Shown in pieces: positions 2,456-33,348 of a DNA stretch of 64,000 bases. Source of the DNA: Verrucomicrobiota bacterium (lineage in GTDB: Bacteria > Verrucomicrobiota > Verrucomicrobiia > Opitutales > Opitutaceae); assembly GCA_048498795.1 (NCBI GenBank), contig JBEHXH010000013.1, forward strand, positions 24,717 through 88,716, in the 5' to 3' direction. The first letter of the stretch is position 1. Every line of letters starts with the position of its first letter. A model generated the notes under the pieces. It did not search any database. It worked only from the letters and a program-made list of their open reading frames with translations, and had not been told where the DNA came from. A program made the position numbers and the translations under genes.

Positions 2456-3472
2456 ATGAAGAAAGCGCTCATCACCGGTATCACGGGTCAGGACGGCTCC
2501 TATCTCGCCGAGCTGTTGCTCGAAAAAGGCTACGAGGTTCATGGCATCATCCGCCGCGCCTCGACCTTCAACACGAGCCGCATCGATCACCTTTACCGCG
2601 ACCCGCATGTGAATGGCGTGCGCCTCTTCCTGCACTACGGCGACCTCGCCGACTCGGTGCAAATGGTGAAGCTGCTCTACGACCTGCAGCCGGATGAAAT
2701 CTACAACCTCGGCGCGCAGTCACACGTGCGCGTGTCGTTCGACATCCCGGAATATACGGGCGATGTCGATGGCCTCGGCGCGCAGCGTATCCTCGAGGCA
2801 GTGCGCGAGGCGGGGCTGGTGAAGAAGGTCCGGTTTTATCAGGCGTCGTCGTCCGAAATGTTCGGCAAGGTCCAGCAGGTGCCGCAGGTCGAGACCACGC
2901 CGTTCTGGCCACGCTCGCCGTACGGCTGCGCCAAGGTCTACGCGTACTGGCTCACCGTTAACTACCGTGAGAGCTACAATCTCCACGCGTCCAACGGCAT
3001 CTTGTTCAATCACGAGAGCCCTCGCCGTGGTGAGACGTTTGTCACGCGCAAGATCACGCGCGCGGCGACCCGCATCAAGCTGGGCCTGCAGGACTCGCTC
3101 TACCTCGGCAACCTCGATGCCCAGCGCGACTGGGGCTACGCCAAGGAGTATGTCGAGATGATGTGGCTGATGCTGCAGCAGGACAAACCCGACGATTACG
3201 TCGTGGCGACGAACGAGACGCACAGCGTGCGCGAGTTCTGCCAAGTGACCTTCGATCGGCTTGGGCTCGATTGGGAGAAGTATGTGAAGTACGACCAGCG
3301 CTATGAGCGCCCTGCAGAGGTCGAGCTTCTCATCGGCAATCCCGCCAAGGCGGAGAAGCAGCTCGGTTGGAAACCCAAGGTGCTCTTCAAGGATCTCGTG
3401 CACATCATGGTCGATTCCGACCTCGAACTGGCCAAGCGCGAGGCGCAGATCGCGCAGTTGCCGAAGCCGTAA
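2456..3472 (+). CDS. gmd: GDP-mannose 4,6-dehydratase
   Basis: [34 protein letters not shown]... The N-terminal Rossmann GxxGxxG, catalytic YxxxK (YGCAKVYAY) and overall Gmd architecture of the SDR-extended family are present. 338 aa. Confidence 0.9.
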
Positions 3473-6691: not shown

Positions 6692-9319
6692 TTGTCGGGT
6701 TTGATGTCTGTTGGTGCTCCAAGCCCGGTGGAGGCTCCGTCAGCGCTCGGCGAAGCCGGTCTCGCGACCGATGTGTGGCCGCGCGTTGGCGAGCGCTGGC
6801 GTTCCATCTACGAAATTCGCGAGCAGTTGTCGGAGACGACTGCCGGGCGCTACTGGCGCGCCGCGCGGATCGACACCGACGAAAACGTCGTCCTCCGCAT
6901 CTTTCACACGACCGTCGATGAAGCCCGACCCGGCGCGTGGGACGGCATCCTTGCCCTCGACTCTGCGCACCTGCTGCGGGCGCGTCCGGCGTTCATGGTG
7001 GAGAACTGCCGCGTCGAGGAATTCGAAGCGCCGGTGGGCACCGCGCTCAGCCGCTGGCGCCGACAGTCGGGTGGTATTGACGCAGACGGCATCGAGGCGC
7101 TGGTGCGCCAAGTCGCCTCGGTCCTTAGTCAATTGCACGGCGTCGGTCTCGTGCACCTCGGCCTGCATCCCGACTCGATTTACGTGCGCGAGGAGGATGG
7201 TAAGCTGCATTTTGTCGTCGGCGCGCTGGAGTCGGTCACACCGTTTGAGCGAGACCGATTGATCCCGGCGCCGGTCGATCCCTTCTACGCTCCGCCCGAG
7301 GCCGCAGGACTCTTTCAGCACTCGCCCGGCCCCATACTGCGGGCGTGGGATTGGTGGACCCTCGGACGTGCGGTGCAGGAAGCGATCCTCGGCTGCCATG
7401 TGCTCGGCCACATCCTCGAACGCGAAGTGATTCCTGCTACGCCGGAGCTCAATGCGCGCATGGAAGCCATGCTGCTCGAGCGCGACGCCGCCGGTCTTCG
7501 CGCGGGCGCGGTCGAAGCGATGCCCGTGCAGGACAAGCGGGTGGACAACCTTCTCCGCGGCCTGCTCACGTCCACCCGGGACGGCCGCTGGGGCCGCGAG
7601 GAAATCGACGGCTGGCTCAAGCGCGATACCATCAAGCATCGCTACGGCCTGCCGCGCACGGAGCGTCTTTTTCGTCTTGGCGAGCGCCCCCTCACGGTGC
7701 CCGAGGCAGCGGACCTGCTGCGTACGCCGGACCTGTGGCCCGAGATCGTGCCGCACGTGTTCAATCTCAAGCAGCCCGGGATGCTCGCGCATTTCCTCGA
7801 TGACTCGCACGCGCACCGGTCGTTTCTCGAAAAACTCACCGACGCGCTGAAGCTCGCGGAAAGCGACGCGCTCAAGTCGTATCCCTCCGCATTGGTACGT
7901 GAAGTGGTGGCGGCGCTGGCGCTGCAGTACCTCGCAGGCAACGAATTCATCTGGCGCGGACGCCGCACCGATACGGCTACGATCCGCGAAATCCTCGACG
8001 CGCCCGGCGACCCCAAGGCGCAATTAGAGCTCGCGCGGCTCTTCAGCCAACGCGTGGTTGTTGGGCAAATCCAGCGCTGCGATGCGGAGTCGGCGCAGAT
8101 TCTCGGCGACCTCGGGCGGGTGGGTGGCGAGGCGGAGGCGCTCGCCATCTCGTCGGGCTGGCTGACGATGACCGACACCACCGGCATCCTCCGGCTCTGG
8201 TCGACGGTGCTGCTCTCCCAAGCTGCGATGCAGGGTGCGCGGGCCAATCTGAAGAAGCGCTTCGCGTGCTGCTCGAATGCCGCGATGAACAAGATTTTCC
8301 AGCTCGAAGCGCCCGCTAGACTCGACCTCGTGGTGTTGGCGTGGGCGGACCGCGAGCCGGCGAAGTTTGGCTTTGTGACCCACGCGGAGTGGGCCAAGCG
8401 GCGTCTCGGCGAACTGCGCGCGACCGGCGACAAGTACGCGATGGCGCTTTTCTGGCGGCGTCTCGGCAAGGCACTCTCCATTGGCACGTGGCTTTTCTCC
8501 CGCTGGCGCATCCTCGTGCCCATCTGGGTGGGCGTGATCACGCTCGGGCTCGTTGCACATCCTGGCCCGCGCTGGGCGTTTGTCGCGATCCTGCCCGCAT
8601 TGCTGGCAGCGGCATGGCGCGTGTTTTCGCAGAAGATGCATGCGTCCCAGACGAAGCTCTTTGCGCCTGCTGCTGCACCCTGGGGCTGGCGCGATGGCGT
8701 GAAACGCTGTCGTACTGAGGCCGAGGCCGTTGCTCCCGGGCTCGATGAAGCCGGACTCCTACGCATGATCCGTGAGATCAATGCCGACATCGCCAAGCTC
8801 CAGATCGAGCCGAAACCAGAGGTGATCGTGATGCCGCCAAAATTTCATAGCACATGGGTGGCCGTGATCGGCAGCTGGATCGCCGTTGGGCTCGTCGTTG
8901 CCACGCATGGATGGGAAATAAAGATCCACCCGCCGAGCATCGCGGCATTTCGGGCTGCATGGGCGGCGAAGCCTCCTCCCATCGACGAAGAAGCGGCGAA
9001 GCCGATCAAGGTCACCTGGCCGCACAAGGCCGTGGGCGAGATCCATGTCGTGAATCTCAAGGGCCATGAGGAAGCCACGCCCGAGCAGCGCGCGGCGGCG
9101 ATGGCGGCGGGGCACAAGATTGCCGATCCCTATTTGCCGGAGACGATCACGCTCTTCATCGCGGTGCGCGTGCCGACCGAGAAGGAATACGGCTTCATGA
9201 TGTACAACGGCAAGACCGGCCAGCTCGCCAACCAGCACGTGTACCTCACGATCTACGAGCCGCTCCCGCGCATGTGGATCGAGCTTTCGGGCGAGCAGGC
9301 GATCTACATGATCCCGTAA
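6692..9319 (+). CDS. membrane-anchored protein kinase-like protein, predicted pseudokinase, with ~300-aa C-terminal extracytoplasmic region
   Basis: The kinase catalytic-loop region LHGVGLVHLGLHPDSIYV has the canonical HRDLKPxN replaced by HLGLHPDS, so the catalytic Asp is absent. An APE-like FYAPPEA and a subdomain-IX-like WDWWTLGRAV are present. There is no Gly-rich loop and VLRI sits where VAIK would be (Lys to Arg). Hydrophobic segments at about aa 590-640 and aa 715-735 predict TM anchoring. Confidence 0.6.
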   Translation: MSGLMSVGAPSPVEAPSALGEAGLATDVWPRVGERWRSIYEIREQLSETTAGRYWRAARIDTDENVVLRIFHTTVDEARPGAWDGILALDSAHLLRARPAFMVENCRVEEFEAPVGTALSRWRRQSGGIDADGIEALVRQVASVLSQLHGVGLVHLGLHPDSIYVREEDGKLHFVVGALESVTPFERDRLIPAPVDPFYAPPEAAGLFQHSPGPILRAWDWWTLGRAVQEAILGCHVLGHILEREVIPATPELNARMEAMLLERDAAGLRAGAVEAMPVQDKRVDNLLRGLLTSTRDGRWGREEIDGWLKRDTIKHRYGLPRTERLFRLGERPLTVPEAADLLRTPDLWPEIVPHVFNLKQPGMLAHFLDDSHAHRSFLEKLTDALKLAESDALKSYPSALVREVVAALALQYLAGNEFIWRGRRTDTATIREILDAPGDPKAQLELARLFSQRVVVGQIQRCDAESAQILGDLGRVGGEAEALAISSGWLTMTDTTGILRLWSTVLLSQAAMQGARANLKKRFACCSNAAMNKIFQLEAPARLDLVVLAWADREPAKFGFVTHAEWAKRRLGELRATGDKYAMALFWRRLGKALSIGTWLFSRWRILVPIWVGVITLGLVAHPGPRWAFVAILPALLAAAWRVFSQKMHASQTKLFAPAAAPWGWRDGVKRCRTEAEAVAPGLDEAGLLRMIREINADIAKLQIEPKPEVIVMPPKFHSTWVAVIGSWIAVGLVVATHGWEIKIHPPSIAAFRAAWAAKPPPIDEEAAKPIKVTWPHKAVGEIHVVNLKGHEEATPEQRAAAMAAGHKIADPYLPETITLFIAVRVPTEKEYGFMMYNGKTGQLANQHVYLTIYEPLPRMWIELSGEQAIYMIP

Positions 9320-9388: not shown

Positions 9389-10549
9389 TTGGCAGCTAAC
9401 GGATATCAAGTCATCGCCCGCAAATGGCGCCCGCAGACCTTCGACGATGTCGTGGGGCAGGACCATGTCATGCGGACGCTGCGCAACGCGATTGTGCGCG
9501 GCCGTATCGCGCATGCCTATCTCTTCGTGGGACCGCGCGGCACGGGCAAGACCTCGACGGCGCGCATCTTTGCCAAGGCGCTCAACTGCACCGATGGGCC
9601 GAAGGCAGATTTTTCGCTCGATGACCCGGCGGTGAAATCGATCAGCGACGGGACGCATCTCGACGTGATCGAGATCGACGGTGCGTCGAACAACGGCGTC
9701 GAGCAGGTGCGCGATCTCCGCGAGACCGCGCGCTACGCGCCGGCGCAGGGCAAGTTCAAGATCTACATCATCGACGAGGTGCACATGCTCTCGACGGCGG
9801 CGTTCAACGCGCTGCTGAAGACCCTCGAAGAGCCGCCGCCGCACGTGAAGTTCGTCTTCGCGACGACGGACGTGCAGAAGGTGCTCCCGACGATCCTATC
9901 GCGCTGCCAGCGCTTCGACCTCAAGCCGATCCCGGCGGAGCTGATCGTGGAGCGGCTAAAAAAGATCGCAGCCGACGAGAAGATCAAAGCCTCCGACGCA
10001 GCGCTCGCCTGCATCGCACGCATGGCGGACGGCGGCATGCGTGATGCGCAGTCAGTGCTCGACCAGATGATTTCCTTCTGTGGTGCCGAGATCGCCGAGG
10101 CGGACGTGCTCGATGTCTATGGTCTCGTCGCCGCAGAGAAGGTCGCAGAACTCGGCGCGGCGGTAGCCGCGGGCGATCACCAGAAGATTGTTTCCATCGT
10201 TGATGATTGCGACGCGGCCGGTCGCGACCTCGTGCGCCTCCTGTCGGATCTGCAAGGGCTCGTGCGCACGGCGCTGCTCGACTCGATCGCGAAGGGCGGA
10301 CGTAGCGAACAGCTCGGCGTGGCGATGACCACGGAGCAAATCACGCGCCTCCTTGATGGCCTGCGCGAAGGTGAATCGGGCGTGAAGCTCGGGCTAGCGG
10401 AGAAAATCAATTTCGAAGTCACGCTGCTCAAGGCCGTCGAGGCCAGCCGCGCTCGCGCGATCGATTCGCTCATCAAGGAGCTCGCTGCTCTCGCCGATGA
10501 AGCGCCCGCGGCCGTGGGCGCGGACGACAGCGAAAAAAAAAAGGGCTGA
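9389..10549 (+). CDS. dnaX: DNA polymerase III subunit gamma/tau, zero-frame product (gamma-like, domains I-III only)
   Basis: [16 protein letters not shown]..., Walker [21 protein letters not shown], a zinc-module region, and the clamp-loader SRC motif ([10 protein letters not shown]). The 386-aa product ends ...DDSEKKKG* two codons after an A10 run. Confidence 0.9.
10532..10543 (+). promoter_or_regulatory. candidate programmed -1 ribosomal frameshift / slippage site, GAA AAA AAA AAG
   Basis: The A10 homopolymer (10533-10542) forms the classic dnaX-type slippery sequence A AAA AAG. The -1 frame has a stop at 10498-10500 and is then open to 10995. A potential stem-loop GTACGGCttctcGCCGTAC lies ~27 nt downstream. 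Confidence 0.5.
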
Positions 10550-10995
10550 TTGATCGGCTCGAAGTACGGCTTCTCGCCGTACGACTGCCGGAGATTCGCG
10601 GACCGCGGCCCGAGGTAACGACAGGCTCTTCGGTTTCGGCTGCTTCAATCGAAGAGAGCGATGCGGTGGCGCTCGCGGCCATCGCACCGGCCAAAACGAG
10701 AGATGAAGCCGCTCCACCGCCGACTACCGGCAGCGACGACGATGCGCCTTCTTGGCCGCTGAGCGAAAGCGACGAAGCGGCGTTTTTGTCGGAGGCACGC
10801 GATAGGGGTGAAACCGTCGTGGCCGCTCCGGTCGCCCAGCGGGAGACCGAGGAAGCCGCAATCGACCCGAAGGCTCTCCCCTCGGCGGATCAGCTCGCGG
10901 CGAAGCTTTCTCCCGAGGTGCGCGAAGTGCTCGACGATCTCTTCCGCGCGAAGTTCACCAACGTGCGGAAGGTGTCGCCGAAGCTGCTGAAGTGA
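10543..10995 (+). CDS. dnaX: tau-specific C-terminal extension of DnaX, reachable only by -1 frameshift or transcriptional slippage at the A10 run (would give a tau of ~535 aa)
   Basis: The -1 frame is open 10501-10995 (150 codons after the slip site). It is acidic and low-complexity, ending ...[29 protein letters not shown]. No independent RBS or ATG; the six-frame track shows only a GTG-initiated 109-aa fragment (10666-10995). Confidence 0.4.
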
Positions 10996-11131: not shown

Positions 11132-11181
11132 CTGCGGCATTTTGCCGCAGATGTTAAAGATTCTGCGGCTGGAAGCCGCAG
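11132..11181. terminator. twin hairpins with identical stems between convergent genes (probable bidirectional terminator)
   Basis: CTGCGGCatttTGCCGCAG and CTGCGGCtggaaGCCGCAG are 12 nt apart, between the dnaX-extension stop (10995) and the stop of the minus-strand gene ending at 11233. Confidence 0.5.
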
Positions 11182-11232: not shown

Positions 11233-12219
11233 TCACTTCTTTTGCTCGGCGGGCGGGGGGGACTTGGCTGGAGTGTCAACCACGGTGGGGATACCGACGT
11301 CGACCCGACCCTCTTTCACGCGACGGTTGAGCGCGGCTGGCTCAGGCATGTCTTTGCCGAAGTACGGACCGGCGCTGAGGATCAGCGCGGGGAGCGACTG
11401 AGTCATGTTCACGCCTTGCGCGCTCACGGTCATGCGCGTGCGCCAGAGGAGCACGCGCTTTTTCTGAGCGATGGCTTGATAGTCGTACGCGGAGGCGACG
11501 ATGAAGTAGATATCGCTGTTCGCTTGATCTACGAGAAACTCGTTGGTCGGGCTCTGGCGGCGGAAGACATTGACCGGATTCGCGAACTCAAAGGCTTCGT
11601 CGCTCATGATCGCCTGGCCACCGGGGACGCGGCTACCGGCATCGCTGGACTGCTTCATGATGGTGGCAGCTTCGAGCGCCTCGACGAATTGGTGGGTAAA
11701 CTTCACGCCGCCGACGAGGAGGGCGCGGCTGACGAGATTGTCGACCTTGGCCTCGTTGCTCACGGTGGGATTCTCCGCGTCGTCGATCAGTGTGCTGTGA
11801 GAGCCCCAGCTGTAGAAGATTGCGAGAGTAGGCGGTTGCTTGGCTTGCTCGGCGTCAAGGTAGCCGGCGGAGGAGAGCGAGCGGTGGAGGATGGCGTCGA
11901 GCTGTTCAGTCGGCGGCTTGGTTTCGCCGGCGGGGGCGTGGCCGATGGTGAGGTAGCCGGTGCAGATCGCAGTATAGTAGGCGGGGCTGCTCGACGAGGC
12001 GGGAGGGAGTTTTTTCCCGGCCTCGGTCATCTCTGTCATCACCGTGATGTCGAGCGAGGGATTCGATTGGAAGGATTTCGGCAGGATGTTGAACACCCAG
12101 CCGGAGTCCTTGGCGTTTTTCACCTTGGGGACCTCGTCGAGTTCACCGGCGGCGAAGGCCGTAGTGAGCGGCAAAAGCAGCACGAAGCTCAAGCAACGAA
12201 GCACAGCAGGGGTAGTCAT
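11233..12219 (-). CDS. secreted protein of unknown function, paralogue family A member 1
   Basis: The start is chosen at MTTPAVLRCLSFVLLLPLTTAFAAG (signal peptide). It shares YY..A..GY...G, a ...SAGYLDAE... region, DIYFIVASAYDYQ and WRTRMTVSAQGV...LPALILSAGPYFGKDMPE with the adjacent gene 12263-13234 and with 58837-59745. Confidence 0.6.
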   Translation of the reverse strand: MTTPAVLRCLSFVLLLPLTTAFAAGELDEVPKVKNAKDSGWVFNILPKSFQSNPSLDITVMTEMTEAGKKLPPASSSSPAYYTAICTGYLTIGHAPAGETKPPTEQLDAILHRSLSSAGYLDAEQAKQPPTLAIFYSWGSHSTLIDDAENPTVSNEAKVDNLVSRALLVGGVKFTHQFVEALEAATIMKQSSDAGSRVPGGQAIMSDEAFEFANPVNVFRRQSPTNEFLVDQANSDIYFIVASAYDYQAIAQKKRVLLWRTRMTVSAQGVNMTQSLPALILSAGPYFGKDMPEPAALNRRVKEGRVDVGIPTVVDTPAKSPPPAEQKK

Positions 12220-12262
12220 CGGAGTAAGGTGACGGCAGGTGAGCGCAGAAAGTTTCGCCGGA

Positions 12263-13234
12263 TCATTTTGCCTCAGGCTTGCTTGCCGGTGGCTCGACCA
12301 CGGTAGGAGCGCCCACGCCGACGGTGCCGTCGCGCACGGCCAAGCGGCGAATGATCTGGCTCTCAGCCATGTCTTTTCCAAAATAGGGCCCGGCGGCTGC
12401 GATCAATGTGGGGAGGGCGAGGTCTTGGCCGACGCCTTGCGCGGCGACTGTCATGCGAGTGCGCCAGACGAGTTCACGGTGATTGACGGCGACAGAGTGG
12501 TAGTCGAAAGCCGAAGCAATCACATAGTAGCAATCGCTGGTTGATTGCGTGAGAAGGAACTCGCTTTTCGGATTCGCGTCTTGAAAGCGCTTCACCGGGT
12601 CATCGAGCGCATTCATTATGGCCACGGCTTGGGCTGCGCCAAGATTGGTCCCGCCATCGCCAGGACTCAAATGGGTGCTCGAGGCATCCTGCACGTCGGC
12701 GGATTGACGCAGGGCGCTGGCGAGATCGGCGGCAAATTTGGTGCCGCCCACGAGCACCGCGCGTTCAAGGATATTGGGCCGAGGGTCGGTGTAAAATACG
12801 CCATTGATGTCCGAATCCGGTAAATAACTCGTCCCCCAGAAATAAGTGATGAGCAGACTGGGTTGATGCTGCGCGTCGGCCGGCAGGTAGCCGCTGTTGG
12901 CGAGCGAACGCTGGAGCAGCTTGTCGATATCCGATTCGCTCAGGCGCTTCTGCACAGGTACGCGACCGTAAGCCCGGTATCCACTATTGCGCGCCACGTA
13001 ATAAATCGGGTGATCTTTTTCGCCCGGAGGCAGTTTTTTTCCGAACAGCGAGACTTCGGTGATGATCGTGAGCTGGAGGTCCGGATTTTTCTGAAACGCC
13101 TTTGGCAGAAGGATGCGCGAAATATCGCGCCGCGGTGGCTCAACGGGAGTAGCATCCTCGGCCCGCGAGAGCAGTGGCAGTATCGCGAGGCCGAGAGCAT
13201 ATATCCGCCAAAGTCTGGTATGGTGGAGAACCAT
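12263..13234 (-). CDS. secreted protein of unknown function, paralogue family A member 2
   Basis: N-terminal signal peptide (RIYALGLAILPLLSRA). Clear similarity to 11233-12219, including WRTRMTVAAQGV...LPTLIAAAGPYFGKDMAE and CYYVIASAFDYH. The two form a tandem pair. Confidence 0.6.
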   Translation of the reverse strand: MVLHHTRLWRIYALGLAILPLLSRAEDATPVEPPRRDISRILLPKAFQKNPDLQLTIITEVSLFGKKLPPGEKDHPIYYVARNSGYRAYGRVPVQKRLSESDIDKLLQRSLANSGYLPADAQHQPSLLITYFWGTSYLPDSDINGVFYTDPRPNILERAVLVGGTKFAADLASALRQSADVQDASSTHLSPGDGGTNLGAAQAVAIMNALDDPVKRFQDANPKSEFLLTQSTSDCYYVIASAFDYHSVAVNHRELVWRTRMTVAAQGVGQDLALPTLIAAAGPYFGKDMAESQIIRRLAVRDGTVGVGAPTVVEPPASKPEAK

Positions 13235-32945: not shown

Positions 32946-33348
32946 GACACGGGCGACGGAATGCGCCGACAGCCCGCAGGGTTTCCCCATGCAGGCACGA
33001 CGGTGCGGTGACAGTGGAGCGACCGTGGAGACATCCGCCCAAGCGGAGCCCTAGTGGATCACCCTTCCAGTGGCCGACGAGGTTAGCTGACGGGCTAGGT
33101 GCCAGGAAGTCACCCGGGCTACACTCGCGTGCGGCCCTGCGCCCCGTCCGTCGCGCGAGAGTCGCGTGGCGGAAATTGGGTCCCCCGTGCTGTCCACCGA
33201 GGAAGCGGTGGCAGCTTAGGCGTGCGAATCCAAAGAACGGGGCAGAGCATGAGCCCTCCGCACCGACGAGCAAGGGTCGCGATACCCTAGGCTGCGTAAT
33301 TACCTATTAATCAGGCTAATCCGAAAAACATGTGATTAAGCGACTGGA

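Follow-up and report, generated by a model that had tools for sequence, protein, structure and literature searches.

A 'reversed' dnaX gene in Opitutaceae, in which tau would be recoded at a conserved A10 run from a frame encoding gamma

How would a bacterium obtain the tau form of its clamp-loader subunit from a dnaX gene whose reading frame closes directly after domain III? The question is raised by the dnaX gene found in 64,000 nucleotides of DNA (the whole stretch analysed, here called the window) from a Verrucomicrobiota bacterium of the Opitutaceae (assembly GCA_048498795.1, contig JBEHXH010000013.1, positions 24,717 to 88,716 of the forward strand). Tau couples the clamp loader to polymerase and helicase, and its tail tethers the polymerase in other bacteria. 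Comparison with relatives supports a 'reversed' gene made of two open reading frames (ORFs), from which gamma would be obtained by standard decoding and tau only by way of a -1 ribosomal shift or of transcriptional slippage; we give a probability of about 0.6 to transcriptional slippage on a run of ten A (A10) being the main route to tau. The elements on which the argument turns, in coordinates of the window, are the following.

9389 to 10549, plus strand: zero frame of dnaX, stop codon included, encoding the gamma-like product (386 amino acids, 41.4 kDa)
10533 to 10542, plus strand: A10 run, the recoding site and proposed RNA-polymerase slippage site, where one extra A would bring tau into frame
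10537 to 10543, plus strand: zero-frame heptamer A_AAA_AAG, on which the ribosome might slip by -1
10543 to 10995, plus strand: -1 frame extension specific to tau (150 codons and a stop)

The zero frame starts with TTG, ends with TGA (10547-10549) and encodes domains I-III of DnaX, with the AAA+ module and lid followed by domain III and a short linker that ends in EKKKG. Pfam matches were obtained for DNA_pol3_delta2 (7e-41), DNAX_ATPase_lid (1e-13) and DNA_pol3_gamma3 (8e-8), along with a match to the NCBIfam model TIGR02397 dnaX_nterm (3e-124). The 3' end of the frame reads GAA AAA AAA AAG GGC TGA, with the stop two codons past the run, which is the sole run of at least 8 A in the 64 kb (the next longest has 6). 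The -1 frame is closed on its upstream side by TGA (10498-10500) and is then open until the stop at 10993-10995, and the full tau would have 535 amino acids with a computed mass of 57.3 kDa; the third (+1) frame is closed by TGA at 10551-10553. A sequence-only reading of this DNA had described the 386-residue frame with its A10 and heptamer as well as the 150-codon frame in -1, and the coordinates of both were confirmed. The layout is that of a reversed two-ORF dnaX, in which a poly-A run is closely followed by the end of an ORF for domains I-III, and a second ORF, for the C-terminal region specific to tau, lies in the -1 frame.

The split is real and conserved. Relatives were drawn from a scan of one genome per species, by which the window falls in Opitutaceae, plus two metagenome contigs, and the resulting set of 16 loci consists of the window, every Opitutaceae locus reaching the site, two other Opitutales (L020 and L021) and the two contigs. 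An identical split layout is present in all 16, including the cultured isolate Cephaloticoccus primus CAG34, as is the phase of the run: the run and the downstream ORF, for which the sequence-only reading had proposed a comparison with close relatives, are both kept in 16/16. The run is A10 in 14 loci and A9 in two (TCA AAA AAA AAC), the zero-frame stop lies 1-2 sense codons past it, and the -1 frame then continues for 105-169 codons. In 14/14 A10 loci the zero frame carries the heptamer A_AAA_AAG and the run is followed by G, although the tau-frame codon begun by that G varies (Gly, Asp, Ala). Metagenomes were scanned with a pattern allowing A8 to A12 before GGNCTGATTGA, and among the 45 dnaX-type sites recovered (42 distinct contexts) 44 have A10 and one A9, with no A11 or A12. 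Thus, the change of frame and the slippery motif are both kept from species to species. The A9 site (L154, match at 2263-2283) has an unchanged upstream phase, so that +2 or -1 nucleotide would be needed for its tau frame; it may be a variant or an assembly error. A search with the 150-residue peptide of the -1 frame returned 14 homologues, all of them stand-alone ORFs of 83-155 amino acids and none (0/14) fused to DnaX. The contexts of three of these homologues (eight listed contigs, of which seven came with DNA) place each ORF directly 3' of dnaX, which encodes approximately 385 amino acids wherever it is complete.

The codon usage of the window, which has 64% GC, gives the run further weight, AAA making up 26% of Lys codons (AAG, 74%) and GAA 24% of Glu codons. 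Since the run is kept in relatives whose flanking synonymous sites have diverged, and is written with the minority codons AAA and GAA, its presence is more than chance. An A or T homopolymer of at least about 9 in the coding strand, held against codon bias, is taken as a mark of programmed transcriptional realignment, and A10 is such a homopolymer.

The -1 frame beyond the run has three blocks that stand out in the alignment of relatives.

10543 to 10572, plus strand: conserved peptide GLIDRLExRL, beginning at the first codon past the run
10753 to 10812, plus strand: conserved motif WP..E..E.AFL.EAR.RGE (tau residues 456-475)
10876 to 10974, plus strand: conserved C-terminal motif, the putative tau tail (tau residues 497-529)

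Substitutions among relatives, counted as pairwise differences, concentrate at the third positions of the -1 frame, with values for codon positions 1, 2 and 3 of 109, 97 and 293 in the first 11 codons and of 1064, 792 and 1867 in the C-terminal block. By this pattern, the -1 frame is judged to be under purifying selection and translated from the first codon after the run. When a profile of the extension was compared by hmmsearch with the single-ORF DnaX proteins of other Opitutales, matches were found in L019 (7.7e-12), L025 (9e-6) and L024 (3e-4), all aligning to the extreme C-terminus, and the extension aligns with the C-terminal 100 residues of single-ORF DnaX. Most of the extension is low-complexity linker, with a short helical tail. 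The profile also weakly matches the general DnaX tail motif DP.I..AL..F.G.I (P=0.003), which ends DnaX in many phyla. Pfam, NCBIfam and PDB sequence searches with the extension gave no match, and its identity with tau rests on the homology with the single-ORF C-terminus and on the weak match to the general tail profile. Judged by that homology, the extension is the C-terminus of DnaX.

A further conserved element follows the run on its 3' side.

10546 to 10553, plus strand: CTGATTGA, two overlapping stops, TGA 10547-10549 for the zero frame and TGA 10551-10553 for the third

These eight bases are conserved at synonymous sites. Among the relatives of the GLI type, CTG is found in 11/11 and ATT in 10/11, in spite of a codon bias in the window under which Ile is written as ATT in 10% of cases and Leu as CTG in 25%. 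TGA stands at +5 and +9, one for each non-tau frame, in the window and in 9 relatives. More generally, in 13/16 loci a stop ends each non-tau frame within 2 to 7 codons, so that nearby stops in the two frames that do not encode the long product are the rule; in L021 the third-frame stop is at +45, and L015 is an exception discussed below.

The length of the run is also kept outside the clade of the window. In L024 and L025, which are also Opitutales, DnaX is encoded by a single ORF (495 and 494 amino acids, respectively), with tau in the zero frame, and their A10 occupies two further phases, both alternative frames being closed within 2-6 codons. The homologous site is thus occupied by A10 in three phases (the clade of the window, L024 and L025), and run length is conserved independently of phase. 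By their sequences, forward (Thermus-type) and reversed architectures coexist within Opitutales. The A10 in question lies at the homologous KKK site, at approximately 3600-3615 in L024 and 3605-3620 in L025 (dnaX codons 368-372). Runs of A8 to A11 were also noticed near the domain III/IV boundary of single-ORF dnaX genes in six further loci (L038, L050, L052, L054, L056 and L064) with labels of other phyla, at dnaX codons from approximately 390 to 425; the labels of their metagenome-assembled genomes (MAGs) are Verrucomicrobia, Chthoniobacterales, Pontiellaceae, Omnitrophota, 'proteobacterium' and Leptospirales. The occurrence of such runs suggests that Thermus-like production of gamma may be widespread.

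By taking these observations into account, the following path to the two products can be proposed. Standard transcription and translation would yield the 386-residue gamma-like clamp-loader subunit, and the 535-residue tau would come only from that share of expression events in which the run is lengthened by one base. RNA polymerase would slip on the A10/T10 tract, generating a mixed mRNA population in which messages with A11, A14 and so on would lead into the tau frame, those with A10 or A13 would be read to the stop at TGA 10547, and those with A12 or A9 to the stop at TGA 10551. A -1 ribosomal slip on A_AAA_AAG would give an identical protein and probably accounts for a minor share. In this way, the A10 site would set a fixed tau:gamma ratio from one gene, by a mechanism that is probably Thermus-like transcriptional slippage with the product roles reversed. 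The sequences show directly the anatomy of the site, its conservation, the selection on the -1 frame past the run and the homology of the extension with DnaX C-termini; from these we infer which slippage event takes place, how efficient it is and that the tail binds the polymerase. The sequence-only reading had placed gamma in the zero frame and tau after a shift, which the comparative evidence bears out; it had also named a -1 slip at A10 as the event, and here the evidence leans instead to the Thermus-like transcriptional route, which that reading had listed second.

Transcriptional slippage is favoured because the whole A10 is kept against codon bias, yet seven of its ten bases would suffice for a ribosomal slip, and because CTGATTGA keeps a TGA in each non-tau frame, again against codon bias, where a pure -1 shift needs no third-frame stop and yet the rare ATT maintains one. 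It is also favoured because the A10 length is kept across phases in L024 and L025, in which tau is in the zero frame, and because no conserved Shine-Dalgarno (SD) element or downstream structure, only ordinary upstream folding and no Rfam match were found at the site.

The alternative that survives best holds that most tau comes from programmed -1 ribosomal frameshifting on A_AAA_AAG, of the E. coli type but with the products reversed, transcription being essentially faithful. We consider it rather unlikely. The E. coli dnaX shift depends on an upstream SD-like element and on a stem-loop approximately 6 nucleotides downstream. A stem-loop is indeed present in the window, as the sequence-only reading had pointed out.

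10564 to 10582, plus strand: 7-bp hairpin GUACGGC-UUCUC-GCCGUAC (-10.5 kcal/mol), not considered part of the mechanism

Its existence was verified, and a mechanistic role was rejected, the hairpin being unconserved and starting 20 nucleotides past the last base of the heptamer (27 from the first), too far 3' for a canonical -1 stimulator. RNAalifold analysis of the downstream region of the relatives gave a consensus of -1.65 kcal/mol without the hairpin helix, and the hairpin positions were paired in 55.8% of cells, compared with 53.5% in shuffles and 53.2% when the positions were slid by one column. SD-like cores (GGAG, GAGG, AGGA) 6-17 nucleotides 5' of the heptamer were found in 12/51 contexts, exactly as in a control window (12/51), and an upstream SD-like stimulator was dropped for lack of enrichment. 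Rfam, which holds a DnaX frameshifting element, gave no match at E<=10 in 10300-10800. Of the components of the E. coli-type cassette, the A_AAA_AAG heptamer in the zero frame is found here, and the SD-like element, a conserved stem-loop 5-9 nucleotides downstream and a shorter gamma as the shifted product are not. With respect to the transcriptional route, an upstream terminator-like hairpin was considered as a stimulator of slippage and was likewise rejected, the folding of the 45 upstream nucleotides being ordinary, with z near 0 in most loci.

Other data bear on the ribosomal route in both directions. The invariance of phase (16/16), of the zero-frame heptamer (14/14 A10 loci) and of the G that completes it, though the tau-frame codon varies, is what would be expected of a ribosomal slip site; the heptamer alone is highly shift-prone (PMC5009743), and the review by Atkins et al. 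places the reversed dnaX of some species, such as Chlorobium phaeobacteroides, under ribosomal frameshifting (PMC5009743). On the other side, the A9 variants read A_AAA_AAC, which is much less shift-prone in E. coli (PMC5009743). A tRNA-Lys(CUU), which would damp slippage, is likely to be present, as judged from the 74% share of AAG among Lys codons; the window contains no tRNA genes, so that no tRNA-Lys repertoire can be read there. As both routes would give the same 535-residue, 57.3-kDa protein, they are inseparable by sequence.

Some observations weigh against the proposed transcriptional route, or against the proposed role of its product. The reversed clade has a fixed phase and always a G after A10, which generates A_AAA_AAG, the most shift-prone bacterial heptamer, for which approximately 14-16% frameshifting was obtained in vitro with the heptamer alone. 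Thus, ribosomal slippage could be substantial. In the soil MAG L016, an in-frame TAG (3120-3122) is found two codons 5' of GAA AAA AAA AAG, and this codon, if real, would end DnaX before the recoding site and block tau. The double stop is not universal, the third frame of L015 running on for 125 codons. Finally, the putative role of the tail in binding the polymerase is suggested by its position, and no Pfam or PDB sequence match was obtained. The deviations in L016, L154, L015 and L021 are single cases, and may reflect assembly error or rare natural variation.

A wider reading of the Opitutales data is put forward tentatively, as a possibility that we hold to be doubtful. According to it, A10 has been toggled within the order between a state in which tau is templated and gamma is obtained by slippage (L024, L025) and one in which gamma is templated and tau is obtained by slippage (Opitutaceae, L020, L021), which would imply slippage near 50%, so that an indel of one base would exchange the two roles at almost no cost in fitness. 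If this were true, an essential replisome subunit would, in the reversed lineages, be obtained entirely through errors of the polymerase, to which slippage of the ribosome on A_AAA_AAG might be added, and the family would offer a natural system for measuring combined transcriptional and translational slippage. In a stronger version of the same reading, the tau:gamma ratio could be adjusted, growth rate and nucleotide pools being conceivable controls.

A second alternative is that of a split gene, in which the downstream ORF is translated alone, through internal initiation or re-initiation, as a small clamp-loader-associated protein. Gene callers do annotate a separate ORF (83-155 amino acids), the zero-frame stop 4 nucleotides past the run makes termination and re-initiation geometrically conceivable, and such an arrangement would tolerate the TAG before the run in L016. 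However, the most conserved N-terminal peptide, GLIDRLExRL, begins at the first codon past the run, and no tau-frame start (ATG, GTG or TTG) is found in the window from the upstream stop (10498-10500) to +123 nucleotides, where the first one lies. Between its upstream stop and the run, the tau frame has none of these codons in 13/16 loci, and among loci the first downstream start ranges from +3 to +168 nucleotides. As no start codon is found there, the conserved N-terminal peptide would not be reachable by independent initiation; furthermore, SD-like motifs are not enriched before the site, and sister lineages carry the same segment fused to DnaX. Independent translation was rejected as a candidate on the position of the peptide and the missing start, and we regard it as highly improbable.

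The weakest alternative, that the gene is truly one ORF with A11 and that A10 arose as a homopolymer error in sequencing or assembly, or marks a phase-variable tract, can draw on the error-proneness of homopolymers in some sequencing chemistries and on the single metagenome contig with A9 (L154), but it was ruled out and is barely credible, in that the layout recurs in 16 independent genomes or MAGs and A10 in 44/45 metagenome sites of many projects, no A11 or A12 appeared though both were searchable, no fused protein occurs among the database homologues, the stops that close the two non-tau frames just past the run are kept at synonymous sites, as would be expected only if the out-of-frame arrangement is the selected state, and neither a single ORF through A9 or A11 nor an unconserved downstream frame, the signs of the error that the sequence-only reading had foreseen, was encountered in relatives.

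Every tau molecule in this lineage would need non-standard decoding, and replication would depend on a programmed 'error'. A practical consequence concerns annotation, since current gene calls report a truncated dnaX and a hypothetical protein, which in Opitutaceae should be joined with a note on slippage. The family also provides a series (forward A10, reversed A10, reversed A9 and no run) suited to testing the published idea that, at a recoding site of approximately 50% efficiency, changing a single base can swap which product is long and which is short.

The surroundings of the gene include a few features that are recorded here in their own right. Directly 5' of dnaX, on the plus strand (6692-9319), an 875-residue ORF has hydrophobic segments and a weak match to the protein-kinase family PF00069 (E=6e-4, below cut-off); the upstream context of dnaX is different in the metagenome relatives L001-L005, where an extracytoplasmic function (ECF) sigma factor is found. 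On the 3' side, two near-identical GC-rich hairpins, CTGCGGC-N5-GCCGCAG (11132-11150 and 11163-11181), lie 12 nucleotides apart between the convergent dnaX and a minus-strand ORF at 11233-12381; no T tract follows them, and a simple terminator scan was negative. That ORF and the adjacent one at 12263-13234, also on the minus strand (382 and 323 amino acids, respectively), look paralogous, sharing WRTRMTV.AQGV...LP.LI.AAGPYFGKDM, and have signal-like N-termini and no Pfam match. Farther away, a c-di-AMP riboswitch (ydaO/yuaA leader, RF00379) was identified at 33057-33232 on the minus strand with 46.6 bits (E=1e-7), above the gathering threshold.

Comparison with known systems shows that the architecture itself is not new. 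Reversed two-ORF dnaX genes, which depend on recoding to yield tau, were defined by Antonov et al. (2013, Nucleic Acids Research 41:6514; PMC3711429) as GeneTack cluster COF_239165634, with 17 genes in 12 genera, nine of which have A10. The nine poly-A genes in Figure S3 of that work include those of Coraliomargarita akajimensis (Verrucomicrobia), Chlorobium, Flavobacterium and Cytophaga, and transcriptional realignment was inferred for the A10 genes by analogy with Thermus (PMC3711429). The description was repeated by Sharma et al. in 2014 (PMC4066793) and by Atkins et al. in 2016 (PMC5009743), and the literature search brought up no experiment that tests a reversed dnaX. As in the set of Antonov et al., whose genes were unannotated in RefSeq at that time, the gamma ORF of the window ends just past poly-A, tau is in the -1 DNA frame and A10 is the commonest length. 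The set includes an Opitutae member in Coraliomargarita akajimensis; unlike that species, Opitutaceae are absent from the nine A10 genes of Figure S3, and the local signature found here, GAA AAA AAA AAG GGN CTG ATT GA with its double TGA, differs from the printed Coraliomargarita sequence (...GACGAAAAAAAAAAGTCCAGTGAT).

With E. coli dnaX the gene of the window shares the gene itself, the zero-frame A_AAA_AAG heptamer and the domain boundary. It differs in that the E. coli frameshift yields the shorter gamma, whereas here the shifted frame yields the longer product, and in that neither E. coli stimulator is conserved and no Rfam family is matched. A likeness of another kind is found in mxiE of Shigella flexneri, described in PMC1088944 as two overlapping ORFs joined by a non-templated nucleotide at a homopolymer, so that the longer product needs slippage; as described there, mxiE differs in encoding an unrelated transcription activator, in having a U run and in a role that is regulatory rather than stoichiometric.

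A further close parallel is Thermus thermophilus dnaX, which, in the summaries given of Larsen et al. 2000 by PMC1088944 and PMC5009743, undergoes transcriptional slippage on A9 with approximately 50% of each product. According to the same summaries, every mRNA, whatever the length of its run, must there yield tau or else a gamma that ends cleanly. The run of A at the gamma/tau boundary and the nearby stops in both non-tau frames are common to the two genes, and Thermus makes its two products by way of mixed mRNA. The difference is one of direction: Thermus templates tau and obtains gamma by slippage, whereas here gamma is templated and slippage would be needed for tau, which is presumably essential. 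L024 and L025, with A10 at the homologous site, have the Thermus-type orientation. Thus, the reversed dnaX architecture was already published in 2013, and the Opitutaceae case extends a known, bioinformatically defined kind; what the sequences compared here add to it is the conserved double stop, the lack of conserved stimulators, and the occurrence of forward and reversed A10 genes together in Opitutales.

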